This document shows positions 1,201-17,531 of a DNA stretch of 64,000 nt, in pieces. A program made the translations under genes and the position numbers. The notes under the pieces are model-generated. The model did not search any database. It worked only from the letters and a program-made list of their open reading frames with translations, and had not been told where the DNA came from. Each line of letters opens with the position of its first letter. The stretch's first letter is position 1. This DNA comes from a virus: the IMG/VR virus record IMGVR_UViG_3300006810_000037, positions 5,775 through 69,774 of that record, one strand, 5' to 3'.

Positions 1201-4059
1201 TTAGAATCCGAAACCTGGTAAACCACCAAAGCCACCACCTGCTCCTCCTAATAAATCTCCTCCGAAATCGGAGGTGAAATCATCTAAGAAGCTTTGACCT
1301 GAAGTTGATTTCTTAGTTTTAATTGTAGTATTATTACCAAAATCTGCAAAACTATTAGGTGATTGTATCGAAGGTGTATCAAGAAAACTTCCGATAGAAC
1401 CCAAGGCCGCTTCTGGACTTGAAGTATTTAAACCTCCTAATATGTCGAAATCTCCAAATTCAGCCTTTACTTCTTCTTTGCTTTGCCCTGGGAAAAAAGT
1501 ATCATAAAACTCATTCTCTGTTCCTTTAAAACCTGCTTGTTGAAATATACCAAATAGACCTGCTCCTTCTCGTCCGCTTTCTTTATCTATTTCCCTTTCA
1601 ATATAATCCACTCCAAGTGTTTCTTGACTAATTTCTTCACCTGCCTCTGCAAGTGCTTTAATCCTTTCTCTTAAAGTAGCAGCATCTTGACCTTGAATCG
1701 TACTGATAAGAATATTTTTAACTTCATCTAATTCTCCTTCTCCTTTTACAAGTCCGAGTTGCCTTCCAATTTTAGTGTTAGGGCCAACACCTGCATTATC
1801 TAAAACACCTTCAGCAAATTCATCGGGTGAAATAAAATTACCAAAGACACCGCCGCCTAGTACATCGCGTTCGTCAAGAAGACTAGGTATAAGCTCAAAA
1901 TTTTTATACCTTTCAATACGATCCTGATCAATTGGATTATCAAAAGCAGCAAAGGTAATTGGAGCCCCGTCTAATAAAATTTCATTTCCATCAATATCCC
2001 TTCCGCCTCTGGTAATGTCGTATAAAGTTCTTGCAAAAGGCTCCTTTTGAATATCGTAAATTAAATTACCTTTATTGTCTTCAAAAGGTTGAGGGACAAT
2101 ACCTCGCACAAGAAGAGCATTAAGGTATTTAGGATCGCCTGACTGAGCCCGTTCAAATTGTTCTTTAAAAAAGTTTTTTTGAAACTCTAGCTTTCTTTCG
2201 TATCTTGAAGAATCTGCTGCTACTTGCTCTTTAACTGGACGATCAAAAAATGGATTTTCAAAAAATCTTGCATCAAAATTTGCATCTAATCCATCTACTG
2301 GCTTTAAGGCATCTAAAAAAGTTTTAGTCTGATCCAATGCTAAAACCTGCAAAGCATTTTTAGTAGACTGCGTCTGAAACGGAGTTTGCAGTTCTTCATC
2401 AACATCGATAAAATTTATAAACTCATTGATTGATTTAGACGCGTTAAATCTTGGGCGTAGATAATCATTAATAAAATCACGAGCAAATTGAGAATCAATA
2501 CCTTTGTAATTAAAATCAGGGTTATTTGGATTGTCTATAGCCTTAATTTCATTATCTATTTTTTTAATACGGTCAAACGTATCTATTTTTTTTCCACTAG
2601 GAACAAATTCTCTACCTGATATAGTAAATAAAATATCTCTGCCACCAGGTAGTTCTTTTAAATACTCCACTACGTCATCTGTTTTCTCAAAGCCTGTTTC
2701 TCTCAAAAACTCTCTGGTAAATTCACCAGAATCTTTATCAAAAACTTCGCCTTTTTTTTCTAAGGCTTGTGATCTAAACTCTTTTTTACTTCCATTTTTC
2801 GCATAAAAAGCTCTACCGAAATCAGCTTTTGATACTTGGCGGCCGTTTGCATTTGCTGATGAACCGAAACCTTGGTTGTTTGTTTTACTTACTACTTCTT
2901 CATAGGCTTCTAAAACTTTAGGATTAGTCTCTACATAAGCAATATAATCTTCTGGTTTTGGTTGAGCATTTTCTAAAATATCTTTTTCTAACTCAAGATC
3001 TGCGAATTTTTTTTCATAATCTTTTGCGTATTTTTCAACCAGATCTTTTTCAAAAAAGTTTTGCCAATTAACGATAGTGCTATTACCACCAAATTGTCCT
3101 AGAGCCCCTCCTAATGTTTTACTGATTTCATCTCTTACACCGGTTGGTAATAATCCTCCGGCATCGCCCAACAAGTCATTTGCTGCGTTACTTCCAAAAT
3201 TACTAAATTGAGAACCTAATAAATTATTTGTTATATCAAATTGCTGTTCTTCTCTTTTTGCACGCTCCAGTCTATTAATAGTAGTTCGTAAAACATCTTC
3301 TGAAAGCCGACCAAATTGTCTAGTTTGTAATAGACCTTCTTCACCTAGTGCCGTAGTTACACTGTCTTCAGCCAATTCGTCTTTTTTATCAGCTCTAAAC
3401 AGATTAATTGTTTGTTGAGTAACGGCAGGACCACCTTCAAAACCTAGCGGGTTGTCACCAACAAATTTTCCTTTACTTGCAAAAGCATTTGGCTCTCGAT
3501 TTTGCGTAGCTCCATTGAATTGATAATCTCCGGCAGCAAACGTGTTGATATCTGGGAAAGTACCCAGGATATCTAAATTGCCTTCTTCAACTGCTCGTTC
3601 ATATTCAGCTTTGACTTCTGGATACTTTTCTAAATAAAATACAGGGTCAAAAAAATTGTCGGCTGAAACAGGTCCTGATGTAAGAGATACAGGCGAGTAT
3701 CCAGGAACTTGTCTTGTGTCAAAAGGCTTGACAACAAAATCTTTATAAAAGTTATCATAAGATTTAAGCAATGCATTTTTCTTTCCGTCAGATATTTGTA
3801 GATTATTAAGTAAAAAATTCTTTTTAGTAAGGTATTGATTTTGGGTATTTAAAGAAGTTCTAGCTTCTTGTACAACAAGATCTATCGCCGCATTAATTCT
3901 TCTTGCTACATTTAATTGTTTACCAGAATAATCGTTTTCATTAAGCCTATTAACAATAAATTTATCTTTTTTTGCATTGTACCTAAAAATCTCATCTGGC
4001 AGTTTTGCCTGATTCATTCCTCCCGTCTGTGTTTCTGGCTGTGTCTGTGTGCTATTCAT
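1201..4059 (-). CDS. Large putative internal virion/ejection protein
   Basis: 952-aa ORF in the structural module with a Gly/Phe-rich C-terminus; function inferred from context only. Confidence 0.55.
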   Translation of the reverse strand: MNSTQTQPETQTGGMNQAKLPDEIFRYNAKKDKFIVNRLNENDYSGKQLNVARRINAAIDLVVQEARTSLNTQNQYLTKKNFLLNNLQISDGKKNALLKSYDNFYKDFVVKPFDTRQVPGYSPVSLTSGPVSADNFFDPVFYLEKYPEVKAEYERAVEEGNLDILGTFPDINTFAAGDYQFNGATQNREPNAFASKGKFVGDNPLGFEGGPAVTQQTINLFRADKKDELAEDSVTTALGEEGLLQTRQFGRLSEDVLRTTINRLERAKREEQQFDITNNLLGSQFSNFGSNAANDLLGDAGGLLPTGVRDEISKTLGGALGQFGGNSTIVNWQNFFEKDLVEKYAKDYEKKFADLELEKDILENAQPKPEDYIAYVETNPKVLEAYEEVVSKTNNQGFGSSANANGRQVSKADFGRAFYAKNGSKKEFRSQALEKKGEVFDKDSGEFTREFLRETGFEKTDDVVEYLKELPGGRDILFTISGREFVPSGKKIDTFDRIKKIDNEIKAIDNPNNPDFNYKGIDSQFARDFINDYLRPRFNASKSINEFINFIDVDEELQTPFQTQSTKNALQVLALDQTKTFLDALKPVDGLDANFDARFFENPFFDRPVKEQVAADSSRYERKLEFQKNFFKEQFERAQSGDPKYLNALLVRGIVPQPFEDNKGNLIYDIQKEPFARTLYDITRGGRDIDGNEILLDGAPITFAAFDNPIDQDRIERYKNFELIPSLLDERDVLGGGVFGNFISPDEFAEGVLDNAGVGPNTKIGRQLGLVKGEGELDEVKNILISTIQGQDAATLRERIKALAEAGEEISQETLGVDYIEREIDKESGREGAGLFGIFQQAGFKGTENEFYDTFFPGQSKEEVKAEFGDFDILGGLNTSSPEAALGSIGSFLDTPSIQSPNSFADFGNNTTIKTKKSTSGQSFLDDFTSDFGGDLLGGAGGGFGGLPGFGF

Positions 4060-4067
4060 TAAAAAAA

Positions 4068-4433
4068 CTAAGCTATTTTTAATTCTATAGGATGGTTTAT
4101 AAGGGAATAAATGTCAATAGTCTCTTGGTTTACCCATCTTTTAATTTCAACCAAACGTTCCTTACAAAAAAATTCTTGCTTTGTATACCACTGTTCCATA
4201 TCATGACTGGCCTTGTTAGAATTACACCTTTGACAAGAAGGAAGTAAATTGCAACGACTGCTGGGACCAGACTTATATCGTGGGATTATGTGGTCAAGAG
4301 AAGTTGCGGAGGCACCGCAGTAAGCACATTTGTTATCCCACGCATCATATATTGATTCTCTAAAACGTCTCTTCGCTCGTTTAGGTGTTAACTCAATGAG
4401 AAGGGCAAGTGGATCCTGTTCATTGTTAAACAT
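4068..4433 (-). CDS. HNH endonuclease
   Basis: CAYC...SLDHIIP...NLLPSCQRCNSNK HNH/zinc-finger motif. Confidence 0.88.
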   Translation of the reverse strand: MFNNEQDPLALLIELTPKRAKRRFRESIYDAWDNKCAYCGASATSLDHIIPRYKSGPSSRCNLLPSCQRCNSNKASHDMEQWYTKQEFFCKERLVEIKRWVNQETIDIYSLINHPIELKIA

Positions 4434-5459: not shown

Positions 5460-6990
5460 ACATAGTAAAACCTTCTATCTTAATAAAATCTGCAGGAATA
5501 TTAAGCAATTTCTGCATCATGCTCACCATGATTGGACTTTGAATGTTTAAAGGAGGAACATCCATATATGACAGGCCATACGTGGTTATATTTTCAAATG
5601 CTTTCTGTTGATCTCTGCGTGTATCATCAACTAATTTTTGTTCCCATGTTACCTGCTCACTGGTAAAGGCAGGGTAATCAGAAGGCTCAGGAGGAAATAA
5701 ATCATCTGTATATTTCATAGCATAGATATGTTTGCAGTATCTATACTCATCTAACAAATGACTCCAAGTATCTTGAACCTGTATTAGTTGATTAGGTTCT
5801 CCTGCAGCTGCAGGAGGAATTGTATCGTAATCACCATATTTAACCATGCCCTCACTACGAGGTGCAGGGGCATCAGGGTTTTTAGGTAGGTCAGTACCTC
5901 TTAAATAAACATTTCCAAAGTCGCTAAAAACACCAGGGAAATCACGGTTTGTGTTCGATGGCTTGTTATTTATACCCGCAGAATTTACTGACTGATTATA
6001 AGGCAACTCATATCCAGAAGGAGCAACAATTGTTAGCGCTCTATTCTGTAAAGCTTCTTGCATAATTCTCTCATCAATTTCACCGGCTGTTGTTGTAACT
6101 TCATAACGCCCTGGTTTTAATGTTGCACATCTAGTTATAGGAAAGGTCGGACTTTTTCTCTTACCTAAAAATGTAGAAACATAATAGTATTGTCTACGTG
6201 TAAAATCTTGACAACTACAAGCATATTTAGATCCGTTAATAAAAAATCTTCCTACCTGAGGAGATCTCTGCGAAGGTGTGATTAAGACACTGTCAAATGT
6301 AGATTCAATAGAACCTTGCTTACGTAAAATTAATACGCCATTGTACGGTTCGATTGAATCCAATACCGCCGCTGTATACCCATACTTTATTCCTGTATCT
6401 GGATCAATTGTTTCTTTTGTAATAGGAATACCCGCTTGCGTTAGAACTCTATCTTCTAAAACATCTCCGTTTAAAGGAGTTAAGTTAGGTTGATTGCCAG
6501 GGGTTTCTATGAAGAGCGGAGGAGGCAGCGGATTATTCGCATCCCATGTTCCGTTTAATTGCACACGCCAAAAATTTCCTGAATCAGTAACAGATGCGAT
6601 AGATAATTCTGTATTATTTTGATCAACTAAATTGTCAAATCTAAGACTTCCTGCAAGGATAGATCCGCACCAATGCATTCCCAACTCTTTGTTTTTAGTA
6701 GGAAATCCCCTAATCAGTCCTGCCATAAGTGGCGGATTATCGCCATTCTGTGTAGAACCGGAAGGAAGAGGTATTCGATAAGAGAAGGGATATTCAAATG
6801 CTGCATAAGCAAGATTAGAAGTTGCTAACTCGTAACCTCTTCTCCAGCGATTCCAAGACGCCTCTTTATTGCTTGAATAAAGTGAGTCTGCAACACTACC
6901 ACCGAATTCGGAAACGATTGGAAAAGGACCTGCTTTTGCTTTACTTTGAGGTGGCTCCTTGAATCCAAAAGAATTGCCACGCGGTGACAT
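5401..6990 (-). CDS. Putative structural protein with split SWIM-type zinc finger
   Basis: YACSCQDF and YCKHIYAM half-motifs in a 529-aa ORF. Confidence 0.6.
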   Translation of the reverse strand: MSPRGNSFGFKEPPQSKAKAGPFPIVSEFGGSVADSLYSSNKEASWNRWRRGYELATSNLAYAAFEYPFSYRIPLPSGSTQNGDNPPLMAGLIRGFPTKNKELGMHWCGSILAGSLRFDNLVDQNNTELSIASVTDSGNFWRVQLNGTWDANNPLPPPLFIETPGNQPNLTPLNGDVLEDRVLTQAGIPITKETIDPDTGIKYGYTAAVLDSIEPYNGVLILRKQGSIESTFDSVLITPSQRSPQVGRFFINGSKYACSCQDFTRRQYYYVSTFLGKRKSPTFPITRCATLKPGRYEVTTTAGEIDERIMQEALQNRALTIVAPSGYELPYNQSVNSAGINNKPSNTNRDFPGVFSDFGNVYLRGTDLPKNPDAPAPRSEGMVKYGDYDTIPPAAAGEPNQLIQVQDTWSHLLDEYRYCKHIYAMKYTDDLFPPEPSDYPAFTSEQVTWEQKLVDDTRRDQQKAFENITTYGLSYMDVPPLNIQSPIMVSMMQKLLNIPADFIKIEGFTMYDKDGSAYVPASGGRPSNV

Positions 6991-11302: not shown

Positions 11303-11713
11303 TTAGATACGAATCAAGTCAGCTGCCATCACAGCATCCCAATCCACTGTCTTAACTGTCTTTAACTGATCAAGGGTAGAGAATCTTTCACCCGAAAGAG
11401 ACATCTGAAGATCCTTGATCTTTTTTGCTGTTTTAATTCCAACTCCTTTAATATGATCTGCGATCATTTGAGCAGAAGCATTATTAATATTCAACCGTGT
11501 ATCAGGAGGAAAGTCTCTAGGCGTTTCCTTATTGGCACGATCTTTAATTTGTAAAGATTTTACTTTTTTAGTGGCTTGTGTATCCTCTTCAATCTCTTCA
11601 CGCCAAACAGTAAAAAGGCGACCTTCAGAGTCTTGGACCATCCTCCAATCGCCATTATCCCACTCTGTAATTACTTTTAGAGTGGCTCCCGTTTTTTTGT
11701 GACGGTATAACAT
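11303..11713 (-). CDS. Helix-hairpin-helix DNA-binding protein (ComEA-like)
   Basis: LNINNAS...IKGVGIKTAKKI...FSTLDQL HhH motif. Confidence 0.8.
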   Translation of the reverse strand: MLYRHKKTGATLKVITEWDNGDWRMVQDSEGRLFTVWREEIEEDTQATKKVKSLQIKDRANKETPRDFPPDTRLNINNASAQMIADHIKGVGIKTAKKIKDLQMSLSGERFSTLDQLKTVKTVDWDAVMAADLIRI

Positions 11714-11740
11714 AAGACCAGTAAAATTTACTGGTCTTAT
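11712..11740. promoter_or_regulatory. Perfect 14-bp inverted repeat overlapping the HhH start codon
   Basis: ATAAGACCAGTAAA-A-TTTACTGGTCTTAT. Confidence 0.7.
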
Positions 11741-11750
11741 TTTAACCTAT

Positions 11751-12563
11751 TCAGCTGCCGCTGCTAACAATTTTGTTAGGCAGATAAGCTTCAATGTCGT
11801 TATAGTCAGAAGCAACATCAGGTTGGATGTAGCAAAGCTCAACAACAATGTAGCCATAGGTTCCAGCAGTTGCATCTCCGGAAGAGATGTAGAAACCACC
11901 GGAAGTAGCAGTAGCATTACCGGATGCCTTTGCGTAGACCTTAAAGGTCGTAGCGGCAGTGTTTTCGCGGTATACCTTACCTGCGGTGACACCAGGAGCG
12001 CCGGTAGCGGTCAGGAAAGGCGTTGCGCTAGTGGCAGAAGAACCACCGGCAAAGTAAATCTCACCAGCTTGGCCTCCGGAAGTAGTGGAGGAAAGGTTGG
12101 CTTGAATCATTCCTTCGCCAACGCCTGAAGCGGCGACAGGTGAACCAGCGTTATCGCGACCGAAAGAGATCACATTTCCAGTGGCTGCATACACACCAGA
12201 AGCAACGCGGCGGTCTCCCCAGCCCGAAGCGATGGCGACAGTAGCGCGATAGCCGTAGGCAGGCAGGTCAGTAGAACCGGAGATCACCATTCCGGTGATG
12301 TCGGTACGGGTGTCGTCTTGCCGATAGGGGGAAGGAACGATCACATCAGCAGAGGCAACTGCGCCATCACCAGAAGTTGCGGTGACTTTGACATAACCAC
12401 GCTGTTGGAAGTAGCGGTAACCAGGGACAGCCAACACAGAGGTGGGGCCTGCCTTGGAAGAATTGTTAGTACCGTCTTGATTGGAATCAATGTTCTTGTA
12501 CCAACCGTTTAAGGCCTCTGTCCAGTTACCTGGATAGATTTTCTTAGCGGACAAGTAGGTCAT
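11751..12563 (-). CDS. Putative capsid decoration/minor capsid protein
   Basis: Directly downstream of the capsid gene, with an AGGAG RBS and the same GC-shifted codon usage. Confidence 0.6.
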   Translation of the reverse strand: MTYLSAKKIYPGNWTEALNGWYKNIDSNQDGTNNSSKAGPTSVLAVPGYRYFQQRGYVKVTATSGDGAVASADVIVPSPYRQDDTRTDITGMVISGSTDLPAYGYRATVAIASGWGDRRVASGVYAATGNVISFGRDNAGSPVAASGVGEGMIQANLSSTTSGGQAGEIYFAGGSSATSATPFLTATGAPGVTAGKVYRENTAATTFKVYAKASGNATATSGGFYISSGDATAGTYGYIVVELCYIQPDVASDYNDIEAYLPNKIVSSGS

Positions 12564-12602
12564 TTATCTCTCCTATTGAGGTTTTGTTTTAATTAGTCAG
12601 GC

Positions 12603-13754
12603 TCAAATAGTGCCGTCGTCTTGAACGAAGCTAAATGCGGTGGTGATGAAGTCCTTATTAAGAATTTCGAAACCAGCATACAGTTGCCAAATCAGAATAA
12701 TGAAGCGGCTGAAGTCATCATTATTGTTGATGAGCACCTGGGCGTTAGGGCCACCGATGCCAACACCGATTGACTGAGGACCGAAGAAGTAGCCCTGAGC
12801 GACTTCCTTGGAAGCATAGCTGCTGCCGCCGTCAAAAGACGTATTGACATTCTTGTTGGGGAAGTTGGTGGACTCGTAGAACTTCACACCTTCAAACTGA
12901 ACGCCAGTAGGCATAACAGGCTCACCAGCCAAGAAGTAGGCTTGGCCTGCCTGAGGACCCATGTAGAAGCTGGCGTTGTTAGGCATCATGGGGTTGCCCA
13001 TGTACATGCCTTGACCAGGATTACCGGCGTAACGAGCGATCTCACGGAAGTCCTCGTCACGACGCAGGTGCATCATGAAGGTGGGATCGCAAATACAACG
13101 ATACAGACCGTCAGCAAAGGTAGGTACGTTGCGCTTACGCATCTGCTTAACAACGTTCAGCAGGTCAGTACGCACGGAGAATTGCTGAACCTGAGCTTCA
13201 TACTCAGCAGTGGTGTAAGAGATACGGTTTTGACTGTCTTTCTCTTTAGCGCCTGCAAAATAGTAACCGCCGATGTCATCGGATGCAGCTCCATTAGCCT
13301 CAGCTTTGGCCATTTCGTCAATGAAGACGCGGTCGCGCCAACGACGATAGTCGTCCAGCAGAGTCAGAGAACCGATGCTCTGGTGGAACATGTTCAAGTT
13401 GCCGGTGTCGAGCAGCAGACGCTGAGCGGTAACCAGAGTCTCACGGGCAATTTTAAAGGTTGAAGGCTGGGTGGGATCGCCTGGATCAGCAGGACCGGTG
13501 TACTCTTTCAGCACAACAAGCACCTTCTCCTTGGTGATGTTGCGGCTGTTAGCAGTACCGATGGTCTGATCGGAGACGCGCTCACGGCTCTCCTTGGTTC
13601 CAGGGGTTCCCCAGAACTTGTAGCGATCAAGTTGCACCGTCTGGCCGGGCTGGCGAGTGAAGTCATGGACGACCACAGGCTCAGCAGCCATCTCGCAAAT
13701 GTAAGCGGGGTGAGGGCGATAAAGCTCCGCACCTAGCAGTTTTGGAAAATCGTT
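12603..13754 (-). CDS. Major capsid protein, exon 2
   Basis: Frame is open 21 codons upstream of the tracked Met (NDFPKLLGAELYRPHPAYICE-MAAEP...); GVKFYESTN and NNNDDFSR motifs; spliced product is 387 aa. Confidence 0.85.
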   Translation of the reverse strand, partial: NDFPKLLGAELYRPHPAYICEMAAEPVVVHDFTRQPGQTVQLDRYKFWGTPGTKESRERVSDQTIGTANSRNITKEKVLVVLKEYTGPADPGDPTQPSTFKIARETLVTAQRLLLDTGNLNMFHQSIGSLTLLDDYRRWRDRVFIDEMAKAEANGAASDDIGGYYFAGAKEKDSQNRISYTTAEYEAQVQQFSVRTDLLNVVKQMRKRNVPTFADGLYRCICDPTFMMHLRRDEDFREIARYAGNPGQGMYMGNPMMPNNASFYMGPQAGQAYFLAGEPVMPTGVQFEGVKFYESTNFPNKNVNTSFDGGSSYASKEVAQGYFFGPQSIGVGIGGPNAQVLINNNDDFSRFIILIWQLYAGFEILNKDFITTAFSFVQDDGTI

Positions 13755-14577
13755 CTCCTGGTCTCCAATTTCTTGAAGGGGTGGACCATCTCTTCATCCC
13801 AGAGGGATGCCGGACGCTGTATCTGGTATTACGTTACAAGATCGTGTAACACCCAGTGGCCTCTGCACGTTCCAATCACGGGCTTGATTGGCTTCGCTCA
13901 GGATTACCCTCGTCTTTACGTTAGGGCTTCCCTGAATTCATCCGGTTTTCACTTAACGATTGCTCGCTAAGGTGACAACGCTTGAGAAGTTCAGGTGAGG
14001 TAAAATTTGGAAACTTGTTCATAAACATCATGAATCCAAAATTAGTCTCAGGATTTGGTAATCTCTACTTAACTGAATCCGGAAGAGCTTTTGAAAAACA
14101 CTTGGACGATAATGACCAGGAGTATTTTGAAGAACTTCCTATACAACACACTAGTAAGTATGATCGTGTCTCAATCCTTGTTGACAGTAAAAGAAAAAGA
14201 TTTAATTTACACGTCTTAATGGCTGTTGCTTTCTTGGATTTAGATTTGCGTTCACATGGAACACACAACTTTTCTTTGCAAGTTAATCATATAGATAACA
14301 ACAAAAGAAATAACAATCTAAATAATTTAGAGATTGCTACTAAACAAGAAAACCTTATAAGAAGCTGGACTGAAAACAATCAAATTAACAATGGTTTTGC
14401 AAGTAAAGGAAAGGCGAAAACATCACTCAGGAAATTTTCTAAAGAAGATGTGAAACAAATTAAATCTTTAAAAGAAGCAGGTCTTTCATACAGAAAGATT
14501 GCTGAAAAATTTAATTGTAATCACGGTGCTATTTACCAAATGCTGAAAGGTAATACCTACCAGGATCTGAACTAGCT
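13755..14577 (-). mobile_element. Group I self-splicing intron (823 nt) in the major capsid gene
   Basis: 5' exon ends in U and intron ends in G; P AAUUCAGGGAAG, Q AAUCCUGAGC, R GUGCAGAGGCCA, S AAGAGAUGGUCC; P3 CCGGA/UCCGG; IGS CGUUGUCA (13980-13973) pairs with both exons. Confidence 0.92.
14030..14575 (+). CDS. Intron-encoded HNH homing endonuclease with C-terminal HTH (antisense to the intron)
   Basis: LHVLMAVAF...VNHIDNNKRNNNLNNLE...EN HNH motif; GLSYRKIAEKFNCNHGAI HTH; TAAAAT at 14001-14006 upstream. Confidence 0.88.
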   Translation: MNPKLVSGFGNLYLTESGRAFEKHLDDNDQEYFEELPIQHTSKYDRVSILVDSKRKRFNLHVLMAVAFLDLDLRSHGTHNFSLQVNHIDNNKRNNNLNNLEIATKQENLIRSWTENNQINNGFASKGKAKTSLRKFSKEDVKQIKSLKEAGLSYRKIAEKFNCNHGAIYQMLKGNTYQDLN

Positions 14578-14589
14578 ATCAATGAACAC
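14578..14589 (-). CDS. Major capsid protein, exon 1 (MFID)
   Basis: GGAGGA RBS then GTG TTC ATT GAT; unspliced RNA stops two codons later (AGC TAG). Confidence 0.85.
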
Positions 14590-14684
14590 TTTGGTTTATC
14601 CTCCAGTGTCAGGTTTATCGGGTGAAAGATAAAGCCAAACGGCTTATCTAACAAAATACTAGCATCAAGTAATTTTAAATACTA

Positions 14685-14709
14685 AGAGGGGGTAATAATT
14701 ACCCCCTCT
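14685..14709. terminator. Hairpin between scaffold and capsid genes (terminator or stabiliser)
   Basis: AGAGGGGGTAA-TAA-TTACCCCCTCT. Confidence 0.6.
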
Positions 14710-14716
14710 GTATTTA

Positions 14717-15763
14717 TCATTCCATTACAAACAGCTTGTTAGCCATTGTTGATGGATTTGCCTGGTTCAGGATACGCCAAGCGTTCTGCGGATCATTAAT
14801 CATCTGCTGGTCAAAAACATTCCAGAACTCACGGGTATTCTGTGGACTGGACTGCACGGGAGGAGCAGGCATAGCTGCGCCACGAGTAGGTTGGACGGCA
14901 GTCGGATAACCGCGAGTTTCTAGCTGTTGCGCGGACTCATAGACAGGGTAAGGTCCCTGGGGTCCGAAGAACTGCAAGGTGTAATCTGACAAAACATCGG
15001 GATTAGTTAAAATCTCGTTGTATGCCTTGTTTTCGACGTGCTCGTTGACTGCAAAAGCTGCATAATCGCAAAGCGTATCATGTGCCCAAATAGCATAGTC
15101 GGCATAGTCAGCCAGACACTGACGCTCATCTTGAGCCCAAATTACTGCGTCATCGAGAAGCTTTTCTAGATTTACCGCGTAATTGTTTAGAATCCCTGGT
15201 GCCTCTGGACCGAACGCGTTCAGAACCGCCCTGCTTTCCGGACTCAGATTGTAATAATCCGCTATCGCTCCGTCCACTTCCGCGTGGGCTTCCGCCGCCG
15301 CCCGACCGTATAGAGTCGAGGAGGTTGGGGAATAGCTGGGCGAGGATACCTGGTTGGGCGACCAAGTCAGGCGATCCGATTGTGAAATACCCGGGCTGAT
15401 CGCTTCCGCCTGTGCCCAGTTTCCCGGGATAGCTTGTGGGTATGTCTGGGCCGGAGCTGACGGTGCTGCCTGGAACGGGGATGGGGCTGGCTGACTCAGT
15501 GCGCCTACCACCTTGTTGAACGCCGCCTCCCATGGGTTGGACGGAGGAACCGCCGCCGGTTGGGATTGGGGGACGTATTGAGACGGGCTTGATGGGTAAT
15601 TGATAAGACCCGCCGGAGCCTGTTGGGGGTAATTCATACCCACCGGAATTTGAGCCTGAGGCAGCGCCACCGGAACCGGTGCTGCCGCCACGTAGCTGCT
15701 GGGGGCGACGGCCACTGGTGTTGGGCTCGTCGGTTGGATCGATTGGACGGTAGCGTCCTGCAT
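14717..15763 (-). CDS. Putative capsid scaffolding protein
   Basis: Lies between portal and capsid genes; AGGAG RBS 7 nt before ATG; P/Q/A-rich N-terminus and helical core. Confidence 0.7.
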   Translation of the reverse strand: MQDATVQSIQPTSPTPVAVAPSSYVAAAPVPVALPQAQIPVGMNYPQQAPAGLINYPSSPSQYVPQSQPAAVPPSNPWEAAFNKVVGALSQPAPSPFQAAPSAPAQTYPQAIPGNWAQAEAISPGISQSDRLTWSPNQVSSPSYSPTSSTLYGRAAAEAHAEVDGAIADYYNLSPESRAVLNAFGPEAPGILNNYAVNLEKLLDDAVIWAQDERQCLADYADYAIWAHDTLCDYAAFAVNEHVENKAYNEILTNPDVLSDYTLQFFGPQGPYPVYESAQQLETRGYPTAVQPTRGAAMPAPPVQSSPQNTREFWNVFDQQMINDPQNAWRILNQANPSTMANKLFVME

Positions 15764-17531
15764 AACTCATCTCCTGTTGTAATGCTTCTAAAGTTCGATA
15801 CAGATAAGGTGTTAAATCCAAACGTGGATCTGCAGCCATAGGTAAATCTGGTGACTGCGGGTGAGGGGTCTGCATCATTCCCGACACCAGGCGACTGAAT
15901 GCTTGGAAAGCTCCTTGCAATTCATTTACCATCCTGAATGGGAACCCCGATAACATCGCGGCTCGTTCCTCATCCGTTTTTTGTGGGAAAAGAAACTTCA
16001 GTGCTTCTATACTATCAACACCCAATTCTTGCAAGTTTCTAACAACAATTGAATTGTTAATTAGATCCTGAGAGGTGTCTTCGTAGACCGGTCCAAGCCA
16101 GCGCCATTGCACAGTTAAATCCCCATCTGGAATTAAACCAATGACAGATGGTGGAAGCATTTCAGTCTTAAGTGCGGCCATCATGATCCGCTTAATTTGC
16201 TGATCATAAGCAGCCATTGCATCTGCATATAGCTCCTCTTCTTGTGCCGTAGCTTCCTCAGACAAGTCAATCGGTTTTTCTAAACCAACAGCTGCGGCTA
16301 AGCTATCTCTGAAAAGCCTCTCTTCCTGATAAATAATTAATTCCATGCAACGTGCAATGCCATGCGTATAAATAGCGCGACATTTTTTCTTTGCAGTTGC
16401 AGCAACTCGACCGTAAATAGATTTAAGTTCAGTCGCAGTTACACTTGCCGAAATACTGATTTCATCCTGACCACCCAAGGCGGTACGGATTTCCTCACGT
16501 AAAGTACGGCTAAAAGATACCTGATCACCTGTAACAGCGTCGGGTATGATATAACCAACACGGTCGTTTGGCTCTAAATTAGCGATGACACGAGGAACAC
16601 GAATGTCTCCACCCATGCCACGCGAAATTGGATCTGCTTTAAACATTGATTTGCTTAAAGCGTTTGCACTCATGAAACCAGAATTAGCAGCAATTGATGG
16701 TCTTTGGACCGTCATGTCCCCTGATTCCATTAGATCAGTTTTTGGTCGCGAAGATAACAAGGTAGGATTGCCAAAGAACTGAATGTTCTTTCGCATGTTT
16801 TTAACCATGTCGTCGTGAAGACAAATTTGATCAGCTAAGGAATCAAAGTCACCTACACCTTCTGTCGCAAACCCTTTGGGATTGTTAAAAATCTCTACGC
16901 AAGGAATAAAACCTAATGTGTTTTTAAGCTTCTTAGTTTTACCAGGTGCTGCTTGATCTGGCATATCAAAAGAGATATGTCCATCTGAATGTGTTTCAGT
17001 AATTAAACGTTTTTTAATTGAAAGCTTAATATATTTTTTAGTGCCTGTTGCATTACCCATACCCAGATGACCTGTATGGCCTGTCATGGGAGAGTCGTCA
17101 ATAGTCACTGGCTGCATAGTGCCCCTACCTTGGCGCACTTTATAGCTATAGATGATTACAACTTCATCTAATTCGCCATCAACATTGTAATAAGTTCTGT
17201 ACTCGTGCTTCCTAAAAAAGTAAAGTCTGTAGTTGTTGTTAGTAGGTCGAATGTAAAATAAACCTTGACCGTCACAAAGAAAATAATCCCAAATAGAATC
17301 TAAACGTGTGTCTAATTGATTGTATTTAGCAACACGATCTAAAAAGTCTTTACGTTGGTTGCCAAAATTATCTTGACCGGGGAAGAATTCTACCCCTTGG
17401 CGAATGCCAAATAATCGCATCTGTGCTAGATGTCCAGCAACGATTCCGGTGTCGACTCCTGCACCACCATCTTTATCTAGATAAGCATTAACAATGTCCT
17501 TTAATCTTGCCTTGGAATCTACTGTCGCCAT
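15150..17531 (-). CDS. Portal protein with long low-complexity C-terminal tail
   Basis: Size and position between terminase and scaffold; KNTLGFIPCVEIFN and GVGDFD portal-like motifs. Confidence 0.75.
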   Translation of the reverse strand: MATVDSKARLKDIVNAYLDKDGGAGVDTGIVAGHLAQMRLFGIRQGVEFFPGQDNFGNQRKDFLDRVAKYNQLDTRLDSIWDYFLCDGQGLFYIRPTNNNYRLYFFRKHEYRTYYNVDGELDEVVIIYSYKVRQGRGTMQPVTIDDSPMTGHTGHLGMGNATGTKKYIKLSIKKRLITETHSDGHISFDMPDQAAPGKTKKLKNTLGFIPCVEIFNNPKGFATEGVGDFDSLADQICLHDDMVKNMRKNIQFFGNPTLLSSRPKTDLMESGDMTVQRPSIAANSGFMSANALSKSMFKADPISRGMGGDIRVPRVIANLEPNDRVGYIIPDAVTGDQVSFSRTLREEIRTALGGQDEISISASVTATELKSIYGRVAATAKKKCRAIYTHGIARCMELIIYQEERLFRDSLAAAVGLEKPIDLSEEATAQEEELYADAMAAYDQQIKRIMMAALKTEMLPPSVIGLIPDGDLTVQWRWLGPVYEDTSQDLINNSIVVRNLQELGVDSIEALKFLFPQKTDEERAAMLSGFPFRMVNELQGAFQAFSRLVSGMMQTPHPQSPDLPMAADPRLDLTPYLYRTLEALQQEMSYAGRYRPIDPTDEPNTSGRRPQQLRGGSTGSGGAASGSNSGGYELPPTGSGGSYQLPIKPVSIRPPIPTGGGSSVQPMGGGVQQGGRRTESASPIPVPGSTVSSGPDIPTSYPGKLGTGGSDQPGYFTIGSPDLVAQPGILAQLFPNLLDSIRSGGGGSPRGSGRSDSGLLQSESGKQGGSERVRSRGTRDSKQLRGKSRKASR

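Follow-up and report, generated by a model that had tools for sequence, protein, structure and literature searches.

Introns in phage capsid genes have been described before. The major capsid gene of mycobacteriophage LittleE is interrupted by an intron of 819 bp, whose splicing was established by reverse-transcription PCR together with N-terminal sequencing, and Tuc2009, a lactococcal phage, is cited in the part of the same report that deals with it as having another capsid intron (Pope et al. 2013, PMC3706429). Endonuclease genes that run against the genes around them are likewise on record: within the part of PMC2988022 that treats their orientation, the T4 endonuclease genes are all co-oriented with their neighbours except segD, and the antisense gene for I-DirII, found in a nuclear ribosomal DNA (rDNA) group I intron, is expressed from its own promoter (PMC3679873; PMC3073962). 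Here we analyze a locus that combines both themes, located in a window of 64,000 nucleotides (nt) corresponding to positions 5,775 to 69,774 of the IMG/VR virus record IMGVR_UViG_3300006810_000037. Its major capsid gene, encoded on the minus strand, is split after the fourth codon by a group I intron of 823 nt, and an HNH endonuclease gene lies on the opposite strand between the two strands of the first intron helix (P1). Taken as a whole, a mobile intron that is spliced out of the capsid message and spread by an antisense, I-HmuI-like HNH homing enzyme is in our judgement a very probable explanation. The layout was first proposed in an earlier note made from the letters of this DNA, and all the positions and motifs it gave, including GGAGGA, GTG TTC ATT GAT and AAC GAT TTT CCA, are found in the sequence. 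Its background, namely that most phage group I introns lie in DNA-metabolism genes or psbA and carry sense-strand endonuclease genes, understated the precedent, as capsid-gene introns are in print, one of them, according to the relevant part of PMC3706429, with a bottom-strand endonuclease open reading frame (ORF). Coordinates of all features are collected in Table 1.

The identity of the interrupted gene follows from the match of its product to the major head protein family phrog_1357 (expectation value, E, 4.7e-14, residues 31-373), in agreement with the name given to it from the start; a Pfam search with the same protein gave no match. Exon 2 is in frame with an ORF of 362 amino acids (aa) that begins with MAAEP (13691) and ends at 12603, and the spliced capsid ORF comprises 387 codons from GTG 14589. 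Since four exon-1 and 21 exon-2 codons precede MAAEP, gene callers lose 25 capsid residues, exactly the truncation that had been predicted, and the unspliced frame reads AGC TAG after GAT, stopping after five codons, also as predicted.

The exon junction can be read from intronless relatives. Of the GenBank phages, Synechococcus phage S-EIVl alone shows similarity at the DNA level, which sets in within exon 2 and amounts to 79% identity, and its capsid homologue (L001, 2968-4119) is a single uninterrupted, GTG-initiated ORF of 383 codons, which shows the same ribosome-binding site and the same GTG TTC ATT GAT, followed directly by ACC GAC TTT CCT. Among IMG/VR capsid loci, counted over the best 80 of 596 reported relatives, 60 are intronless, with GTGTTYATTGAT fused directly to AAYGAYTTTCC, while the remaining 20 carry an insert at exactly the same point. 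These alleles fix the junction at 14578|13754, hence the split after codon 4 is confirmed, and the search for intronless homologues that the earlier note had suggested returns, in S-EIVl and in those 60 loci, genes joined precisely where it had placed the joint. A group I intron needs a U before its 5' splice site and a G as its last base; both are present, U at 14578 and G at 13755. The capsid gene starts with GTG in the window, as it does in S-EIVl and in 78 of the same 80 loci, and because the other two (L050 and L053) carry ATG at that very codon, GTG 14589 is taken as the true start. Relatives with and without the intron nearly all keep the upstream GGAGGAT, which reads GGAGAAT in L050 and L053.

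As a separate observation on S-EIVl, its record KJ410740.1 mis-annotates the capsid gene, which is broken up there into a 'hypothetical protein' on the minus strand (L001 2893-3654) and a coding sequence on the plus strand that is given as partial (CDS, 3649-4119).

Concerning the intron itself, the Rfam group I model RF00028 matches positions 13994..13762 of the minus strand with 87 bits against a gathering score of 50 (E 3.9e-22), over the full model (1-253 of 253), and this is its only match in the complete 69,774-bp viral genome. Fourteen distinct alleles, a single one of 276 nt and the other 13 of 823-826 nt, went into a structure alignment that covers P1 to P9 with the P3/P7 pseudoknot. 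Over its 74 pairs standard pairing is found in 98.1% of cells, a value that drops to 27-41% when the 3' partners are slid by one to three columns. Thirteen of the 74 pairs are changed on both sides, which none of 500 shuffles reaches, and the covariation score and the percentage paired were likewise reached by none of the 500; the number of further standard pair types is unremarkable (18 observed, reached by 499 of the 500). The compensatory changes are located in P2, P6, P6a, P7, the arm between P7 and P3', P8 and P9, and in one allele (L057) the P7-P3' arm has an unrelated sequence with the same two-helix fold (alignment columns 743-776). The P7 of the window, GGCCA/UGGUC, is present as the earlier note had it, but what was there called a variant is the compensated C-G form of a U-A pair in the canonical GACUA/UAGUC, which is carried by eight of the 14 alleles. 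The Rfam E-value, the covariation and the presence or absence of the insert at one and the same site are mutually independent and place the group I assignment of that note far beyond chance.

Subgroup IA2 is defined, in the passage of PMC3428280 that treats it, by P7.1 and P7.2 between P7 and P3', linked by G-U-A. In the present intron a two-helix arm occupies this place (13856-13823), with GUA following the inner helix, but the two helices are nested instead of lying side by side, for which reason we leave the subgroup open and describe the element as what appears to be a mobile group I intron of a phage IA-like type in the capsid gene of an S-EIV1-like cyanophage. Intron-like stretches with 71-83% identity to its core occur in 114 phage records of GenBank, including Vibrio, Klebsiella, Staphylococcus, Escherichia, Bacillus and other phages, and the core therefore belongs to a common phage intron stock. 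Guanosine-dependent self-splicing would be the expected mode of excision.

The region around P1 sets this intron apart. P1 has 7 bp, the one at the 5' splice site being a wobble between U 14578 and G 13976, and does not vary among the 14 alleles, and the CGUU of the guide sequence (13980-13977) can form P10 with the AACG of exon 2, so that the guide pairing, the U.G at the splice site and the possible P10 are read here as they were at the outset. The two P1 strands lie 595 nt apart in the window allele and 51 nt apart in L044, a 276-nt intron without ORF. Beyond P1, the helix P1a is also invariant in the 14 alleles and is kept by all ORF-less alleles, and a further helix, P1b, shows the consensus AGGU[A/G]U with A[U/C][A/G]CCU across 35 distinct strand combinations. 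At position 5 of P1b these combinations have A-U in 23 cases, G-C in six and a mismatch in five, and at position 4 a U.G in 19; because such a U.G would be a C-A mismatch on the other strand, P1b belongs to the intron RNA. The minimum-energy folds given by RNAfold contain P1 and P1a for a short version of 72 nt, at z -2.45, as well as for the window version of 620 nt, at z -3.94 with 20 shuffles, and P1b was not recovered in the fold of the 620-nt window allele. Hence the very large L1 of the earlier note is correct as to its 595 nt, yet it is no open loop, as P1a and P1b close it.

A 26-nt core motif scanned against IMG/VR yielded at least 118 stretches, reduced to 115 loci, several of them also among the contigs of the first set. 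Both intron ends could be located in 94 of the matches listed, with 83 introns of 821-827 nt, ten of 271-277 nt and one (L150) of 325 nt; in the other 21 of the 115 listed loci one end is missing, being beyond the contig or missed by the patterns. Every readable flank among these 115 loci is the same capsid exon site. The introns of 271-277 nt cap P1a with a small covarying hairpin (AAACAA/UUGUUU, AAGCAA/UUGCUU or AGGCAA/UUGCCU), and the long alleles keep P1a and have the HNH-bearing segment in place of this hairpin, which settles the location of the antisense gene in the P1 loop as proposed. L150 retains the first few and the last few HNH codons and has lost the middle. Because both ends of the gene are kept, it represents an internal ORF deletion and, judged from its sequence, a clear case of what would be endonuclease-gene decay inside a still intact ribozyme. 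The 271-277-nt forms may be either ancestral or older deletion products, L150 being the only clear deletion.

The antisense gene lies within a plus-strand ORF of 197 aa (13982..14575) that matches Pfam HNH_3 with 28.9 bits against a cut-off of 24.8 (residues 99-124), and several helix-turn-helix families match it below their cut-offs. Its protein matches phrog_59, 'HNH endonuclease' (E 7.5e-23), and among solved structures the sole meaningful match is I-HmuI (1u3e; E 0.008, residues 43-175). The TAG of the gene (14573-14575) ends two bases from the 5' splice site, and the CTAG it belongs to is a stop on both strands: all the HNH-bearing alleles compared have AGCTAG at this point, and of the 12 ORF-less alleles listed six have AGCTGG. 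In the 14-allele alignment the HNH gene is intact and free of insertions and deletions in each of the 13 long alleles, with pairwise ratios of nonsynonymous to synonymous divergence (dN/dS) of 0.09-0.16 at dS values of up to about 2, and the reading frame has 181 codons in 59 of 59 scored alleles, out of 65 distinct long alleles of which six with a different second codon were left unscored. As judged from these sequences, the HNH frame is a working gene under purifying selection. It is also the only real plus-strand ORF of at least 130 aa in the 30-kb run of minus-strand ORFs (53 to 30223) in which the capsid gene lies, two others, at 12942 and 26291, being taken as shadow frames inside longer minus-strand ORFs. 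A tblastn search of the protein against 50,697 GenBank phage records gave no match at E 1e-5, and no second HNH copy was found in its own genome.

Concerning its expression, the TAAAAT pointed out in the earlier note is present upstream of the gene and corresponds to a conserved TAnnnT, which, counted in related alleles with no chance control, starts at -29 relative to the HNH ATG in 47 of 59 alleles, at -28 to -30 in 52 and at -35 to -28 in all 59. The three inner bases vary, and TGn stands in front in many alleles that are not of the window type. The gene is probably transcribed from its own -10-type promoter, the element being a lead and not a demonstration. Downstream, a terminator-like hairpin (14685-14709) sits between the upstream gene and the capsid gene. 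A candidate Rfam sraA at 14611-14718 on the plus strand (26.5 bits against a gathering score of 56, E 0.36) was discarded, as it is merely this hairpin.

The spliced junction that the earlier note had proposed to look for is present in RNA libraries. Thirteen RNA-labelled runs contain part of the stretch, and the four best (X1 to X4), which come from four coded studies and may be one campaign, were compared as assembled contigs. In all four metatranscriptomes a contig skips 823 nt between 13753 and 14577, a one-base ambiguity making this joint identical to 13754|14578. The shorter side of the joint measures 29, 30, 30 and 215 nt, respectively, and in X4 a contig of 1404 nt spans it with 215 nt of exon 2 free of differences and 524 nt upstream with six differences. 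Unspliced contigs that run through the splice sites are also present, e.g. record 14 of X2 (13752-14606). In X1 and X4 the contig depth is greater in exon than in intron bins, and in X2 and X3 the two are about equal, but contig depths cannot rank gene parts and nothing is drawn from them.

Where the joined contigs come from can be approached through close relatives. A 30-nt exon-2 probe retrieved nine IMG/VR contigs, eight with the intron and one, L198, without it. L198 (3723 nt) corresponds to window positions 11587-13754 plus 14577-16136, is 99.8% and 98.3% identical on the two sides and precisely lacks the 823-nt intron; it may be either an intron-minus genome, i.e. a natural homing target, or an assembled spliced transcript. 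At position 13482 all four RNA runs have only A, as do the intron-bearing L122, L169, L200 and L005, and L198 has T. This favours splicing as the source of the joined contigs, although as a weak point.

According to the mechanism that we propose, the capsid pre-mRNA would be transcribed from the minus strand and its guide sequence (13980-13973) would pair across about 595 nt with the boundary of exon 1 and intron to form P1. P1a and P1b would hold the ends of the big loop together and bring the 5' splice site to the guide, after which the ribozyme would excise 823 nt and join GAT to AAC, restoring the 387-codon ORF, while unspliced RNA would yield a five-residue peptide only. The HNH gene would be read from the opposite strand under its own signals, and its product would most likely nick or cut intronless capsid alleles of co-infecting relatives, whose repair would copy the intron in. 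The coexistence at one site of intron-minus, ORF-less, ORF-deleted and many HNH-bearing alleles, some of them in near-identical genomes, fits the gain-and-loss cycle known for homing endonuclease genes.

Several points weigh against this reading and bear on the alternatives to it. P1 and P1a never vary, and their support in the 14 alleles comes from conservation and folding, not from covariation. The RNA evidence consists of strandless assembled contigs in which DNA carry-over is possible, the runs compared are RNA-labelled ones, and L198 implies that a near-identical intronless genome or transcript exists which could in principle supply the joined contigs. These last points are what would sustain the view that the intron stays unspliced, that the capsid protein starts at MAAEP, which does have an ATG, and that the joined contigs come from a co-occurring intronless strain (L198 having near-identical flanks) or from carried-over DNA. 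It would then be hard to see why the 25 upstream residues, the GTG or ATG start and GGAGGA are conserved in S-EIVl and in the 60 intronless loci among the 80 best relatives, or why a dead insert should keep 13 compensatory pairs, the guide sequence and the terminal G in 14 diverged alleles; furthermore, the four RNA runs carry the 13482A of the intron haplotype and not the T of L198. We regard this explanation as very improbable. Still less credible, to the point of being negligible, is that the HNH gene invaded as a free-standing unit and is no part of the intron, the true exon 1 then lying beside the core, for example in the 36-aa ORF 14031..13921 of the minus strand. The first hairpin of the Rfam match, which is local (about 13990-13971), and the ATG with which that small ORF starts at 14031 could suggest so. 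This hairpin, however, contains several non-pairs and was rejected as P1, the intronless and ORF-less alleles requiring the long-range helix; the intronless alleles show the whole 823 nt, HNH gene included, as one insert, the ORF-less alleles keep the 5' splice site 12 nt after the beginning of the GTG codon, and the RNA contigs skip all 823 nt. These three kinds of data fix the 5' splice site at 14578 and refute the 36-aa ORF as exon 1.

The part played by the HNH protein is a different matter. Its match to I-HmuI is weak (E 0.008) and the helix-turn-helix family HTH_38 scores 24.7 bits, below its cut-off of 27. Alternatively, the intron might splice with an HNH enzyme that is not, or is no longer, the homing enzyme of this site but, for instance, attacks the DNA of competing phages in the manner of the PhiPA3 intron endonuclease, or aids RNA folding. 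Strong purifying selection tells that the protein has a function, not which one, and an intron endonuclease used in competition between co-infecting phages is described, in the part of the work concerned with it, in PMC11620839. On the other hand, an intron that is present, absent or ORF-less at a single site in close genomes is the footprint expected of homing with occasional loss of the endonuclease, the HNH motif with its putative helix-turn-helix is the combination of I-HmuI-type intron nickases, and the protein is dispensable for splicing, as the survival of ORF-less forms shows. Another role for the enzyme is therefore considered unlikely, and homing the better supported one. As to its promoter, a sigma-70 consensus scan of 13600-14800 returned no promoters where 2.6 were expected by chance, hence the proposal depends on the conserved TAnnnT, itself a count in related alleles that lacks a chance control.

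The antisense layout could also be more than an accident, namely a regulatory circuit by which capsid and endonuclease output are mutually timed. The candidate promoter element is embedded in P1b, and over about 550 nt the HNH mRNA is the full complement of the P1 loop of the capsid pre-mRNA. Early HNH transcription might then impede P1 closure and splicing by pairing or collision with the capsid transcripts, and heavy late capsid transcription might in turn silence the HNH gene. As the 5' splice site is 12 nt from the start codon, a ribosome located there and P1 are mutually exclusive, and splicing would consequently have to precede productive translation. Such a circuit is a speculative addition that seems to us rather doubtful; if it exists, the output of the capsid and that of the endonuclease would each be timed against the other.

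Table 1. Position and strand of the elements of the split capsid gene, its intron and the antisense HNH gene, in window coordinates.
Feature	Position	Strand	Remarks
Ribosome-binding site GGAGGA of capsid gene	14599..14604	-	Read from sequence
Capsid exon 1, GTG TTC ATT GAT (M F I D)	14578..14589	-	5' splice site at U 14578
Capsid exon 2, 383 codons + stop	12603..13754	-	Opens AAC GAT TTT CCA
Group I intron, 823 nt, terminal G at 13755	13755..14577	-	Rfam, intronless alleles, RNA contigs
Ribozyme core	13762..13994	-	Rfam and covariation
P1 5' strand, UGAU|AGC across splice site	14575..14581	-	Pairs with 13979-13973 (GUUGUCA)
Internal guide sequence CGUUGUCA, P1 3' strand	13973..13980	-	Overlain by 3' strand of first Rfam hairpin, read as P1
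P1a 5' strand, GUUCAG	14567..14572	-	Pairs with CUGAAC 13994-13989
P1a 3' strand, CUGAAC	13989..13994	-	
P1b 5' strand, AGGUAU	14553..14558	-	Closes HNH insert with 14002-13998; 5 bp in window allele
P1b 3' strand, UACCU	13998..14002	-	
P2	13971-13952	-	
P3	13945-13939 with 13816-13810	-	
P4	13935-13930 with 13903-13898	-	
P5	13926-13923 with 13910-13907	-	
P6	13897-13895 with 13869-13867	-	
P6a	13891-13886 with 13877-13872	-	
P7	13863-13857 with 13788-13783	-	GGCCA/UGGUC at 13861-13857 with 13788-13784
Extra arm between P7 and P3'	13856-13823	-	Two helices, covaries
P8	13809-13795	-	
P9	13778-13763	-	
HNH homing-endonuclease gene (putative function), 181 codons + TAG	14030..14575	+	Antisense to intron; I-HmuI-like; putative C-terminal helix-turn-helix
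Candidate -10 element TAAAAT for HNH gene	14001..14006	+	29 nt upstream of ATG 14030
CTAG palindrome, stop on both strands	14572..14575	.	UAG of unspliced exon-1 frame; TAG of HNH gene
Terminator-like hairpin, perfect 11 bp, T-rich tails on both strands	14685..14709	.	110 nt past HNH stop

With regard to the genes around this locus, the upstream neighbours of the capsid gene would be, by our own reading of their sequences and with no profile match, head-module (portal/scaffold) genes. Two minus-strand ORFs in this region, 15150..17531, whose product of 793 aa has a tail rich in Gly, Ser and Arg, and 14717..15763, whose product of 348 aa has a start rich in Gln, Pro and Ala, overlap by 614 nt (15150-15763) in different frames, and both frames are open as well in L008 and in S-EIVl (L001 1396-2373, against an annotated CDS ending at 1949).

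If splicing takes place as proposed, the most abundant structural protein of a widespread cyanophage lineage would need it, a dependence that standard gene callers hide by dropping 25 residues. The series of alleles at one site, with intron-minus, several ORF-less, ORF-deleted and more than 60 distinct HNH-bearing versions, constitutes a data set for the gain and loss of homing endonucleases in wild phages, and the locus lends itself, as a compact case, to the question of how a ribozyme tolerates 595 nt inserted into its substrate helix. New in comparison with described systems are the S-EIV1-like lineage, environmentally common with well over a hundred contigs, the antisense HNH gene in an extended P1, the splice site only 12 nt from the start codon and the rich natural series of ORF-bearing and ORF-less alleles. 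An intron in capsid genes of the S-EIV1 type was described nowhere in the literature searched, which did not include the original S-EIV1 paper or supplementary files, and the same holds for a phage intron whose P1 contains an antisense HNH gene; the words 'antisense', 'capsid', 'opposite' and 'orientation' do not occur in the text available of a review of bacterial group I introns (PMC3984707).

The enzyme closest to the HNH protein among solved structures, I-HmuI, is a phage protein encoded in a group I intron, namely the HNH nickase of the DNA-polymerase intron of Bacillus phage SPO1, encoded on the sense strand. The alignment of both proteins, whose match is weak as stated, covers the HNH motif and the C-terminal DNA-binding end, whereas their genes differ in strand and host gene, sense in a DNA-polymerase gene for I-HmuI and antisense in a capsid gene here. 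At the level of the whole arrangement the nearest case is LittleE, with which a capsid intron accompanied by a bottom-strand endonuclease is already known in kind: as far as the account of that intron goes, it is a probable group I intron of similar size, located in a phage major capsid gene, optional among close relatives, with a U ending exon 1 and a G ending the intron and an endonuclease frame on the bottom strand, opposite the capsid gene, and a related 265-bp intron without ORF in BAKA can be compared with the short forms described above. Unlike the present locus, LittleE belongs to a different phage lineage with a different host, its ORF is LAGLIDADG-like with an HNH-related tail and not an I-HmuI-like HNH, and its junction falls just after the capsid maturation site and not after codon 4 (relevant part of PMC3706429).

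Among cyanophages, the Pf-WMP3 intron compares with the present one, in the features set out in the relevant part of PMC3428280, in that it is a group I intron, has an additional arm of the P7.1/P7.2 type (IA2 in that phage), forms a P10 of 4 bp and encodes a nicking enzyme of the HNH class, I-PfoP3I. It interrupts a DNA-polymerase gene, has a sense-strand ORF that runs from P6a through P7.2 and lacks P2, whereas the capsid intron has a P2 and carries its ORF in antisense orientation in P1. In T4, as described in the corresponding part of PMC2988022, segD is a homing-type endonuclease gene that, like the HNH gene, opposes the surrounding late genes, adjoins the major capsid gene and has no recognisable promoter of its own, but it is free-standing, of the GIY-YIG family and outside any intron. 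Finally, nuclear rDNA group I introns such as Dir.S956-2 with I-DirII carry endonuclease genes in peripheral helices including P1, in sense as well as antisense orientation, although in eukaryotic rRNA genes, in introns of subgroups IC1 and IE and with an RNA polymerase II-type expression that involves a spliceosomal intron and poly(A) (PMC3679873; PMC3073962). An HNH gene that is antisense and has its possible promoter within a helix of the intron would be the bacterial-type counterpart of these nuclear rDNA antisense endonuclease genes.

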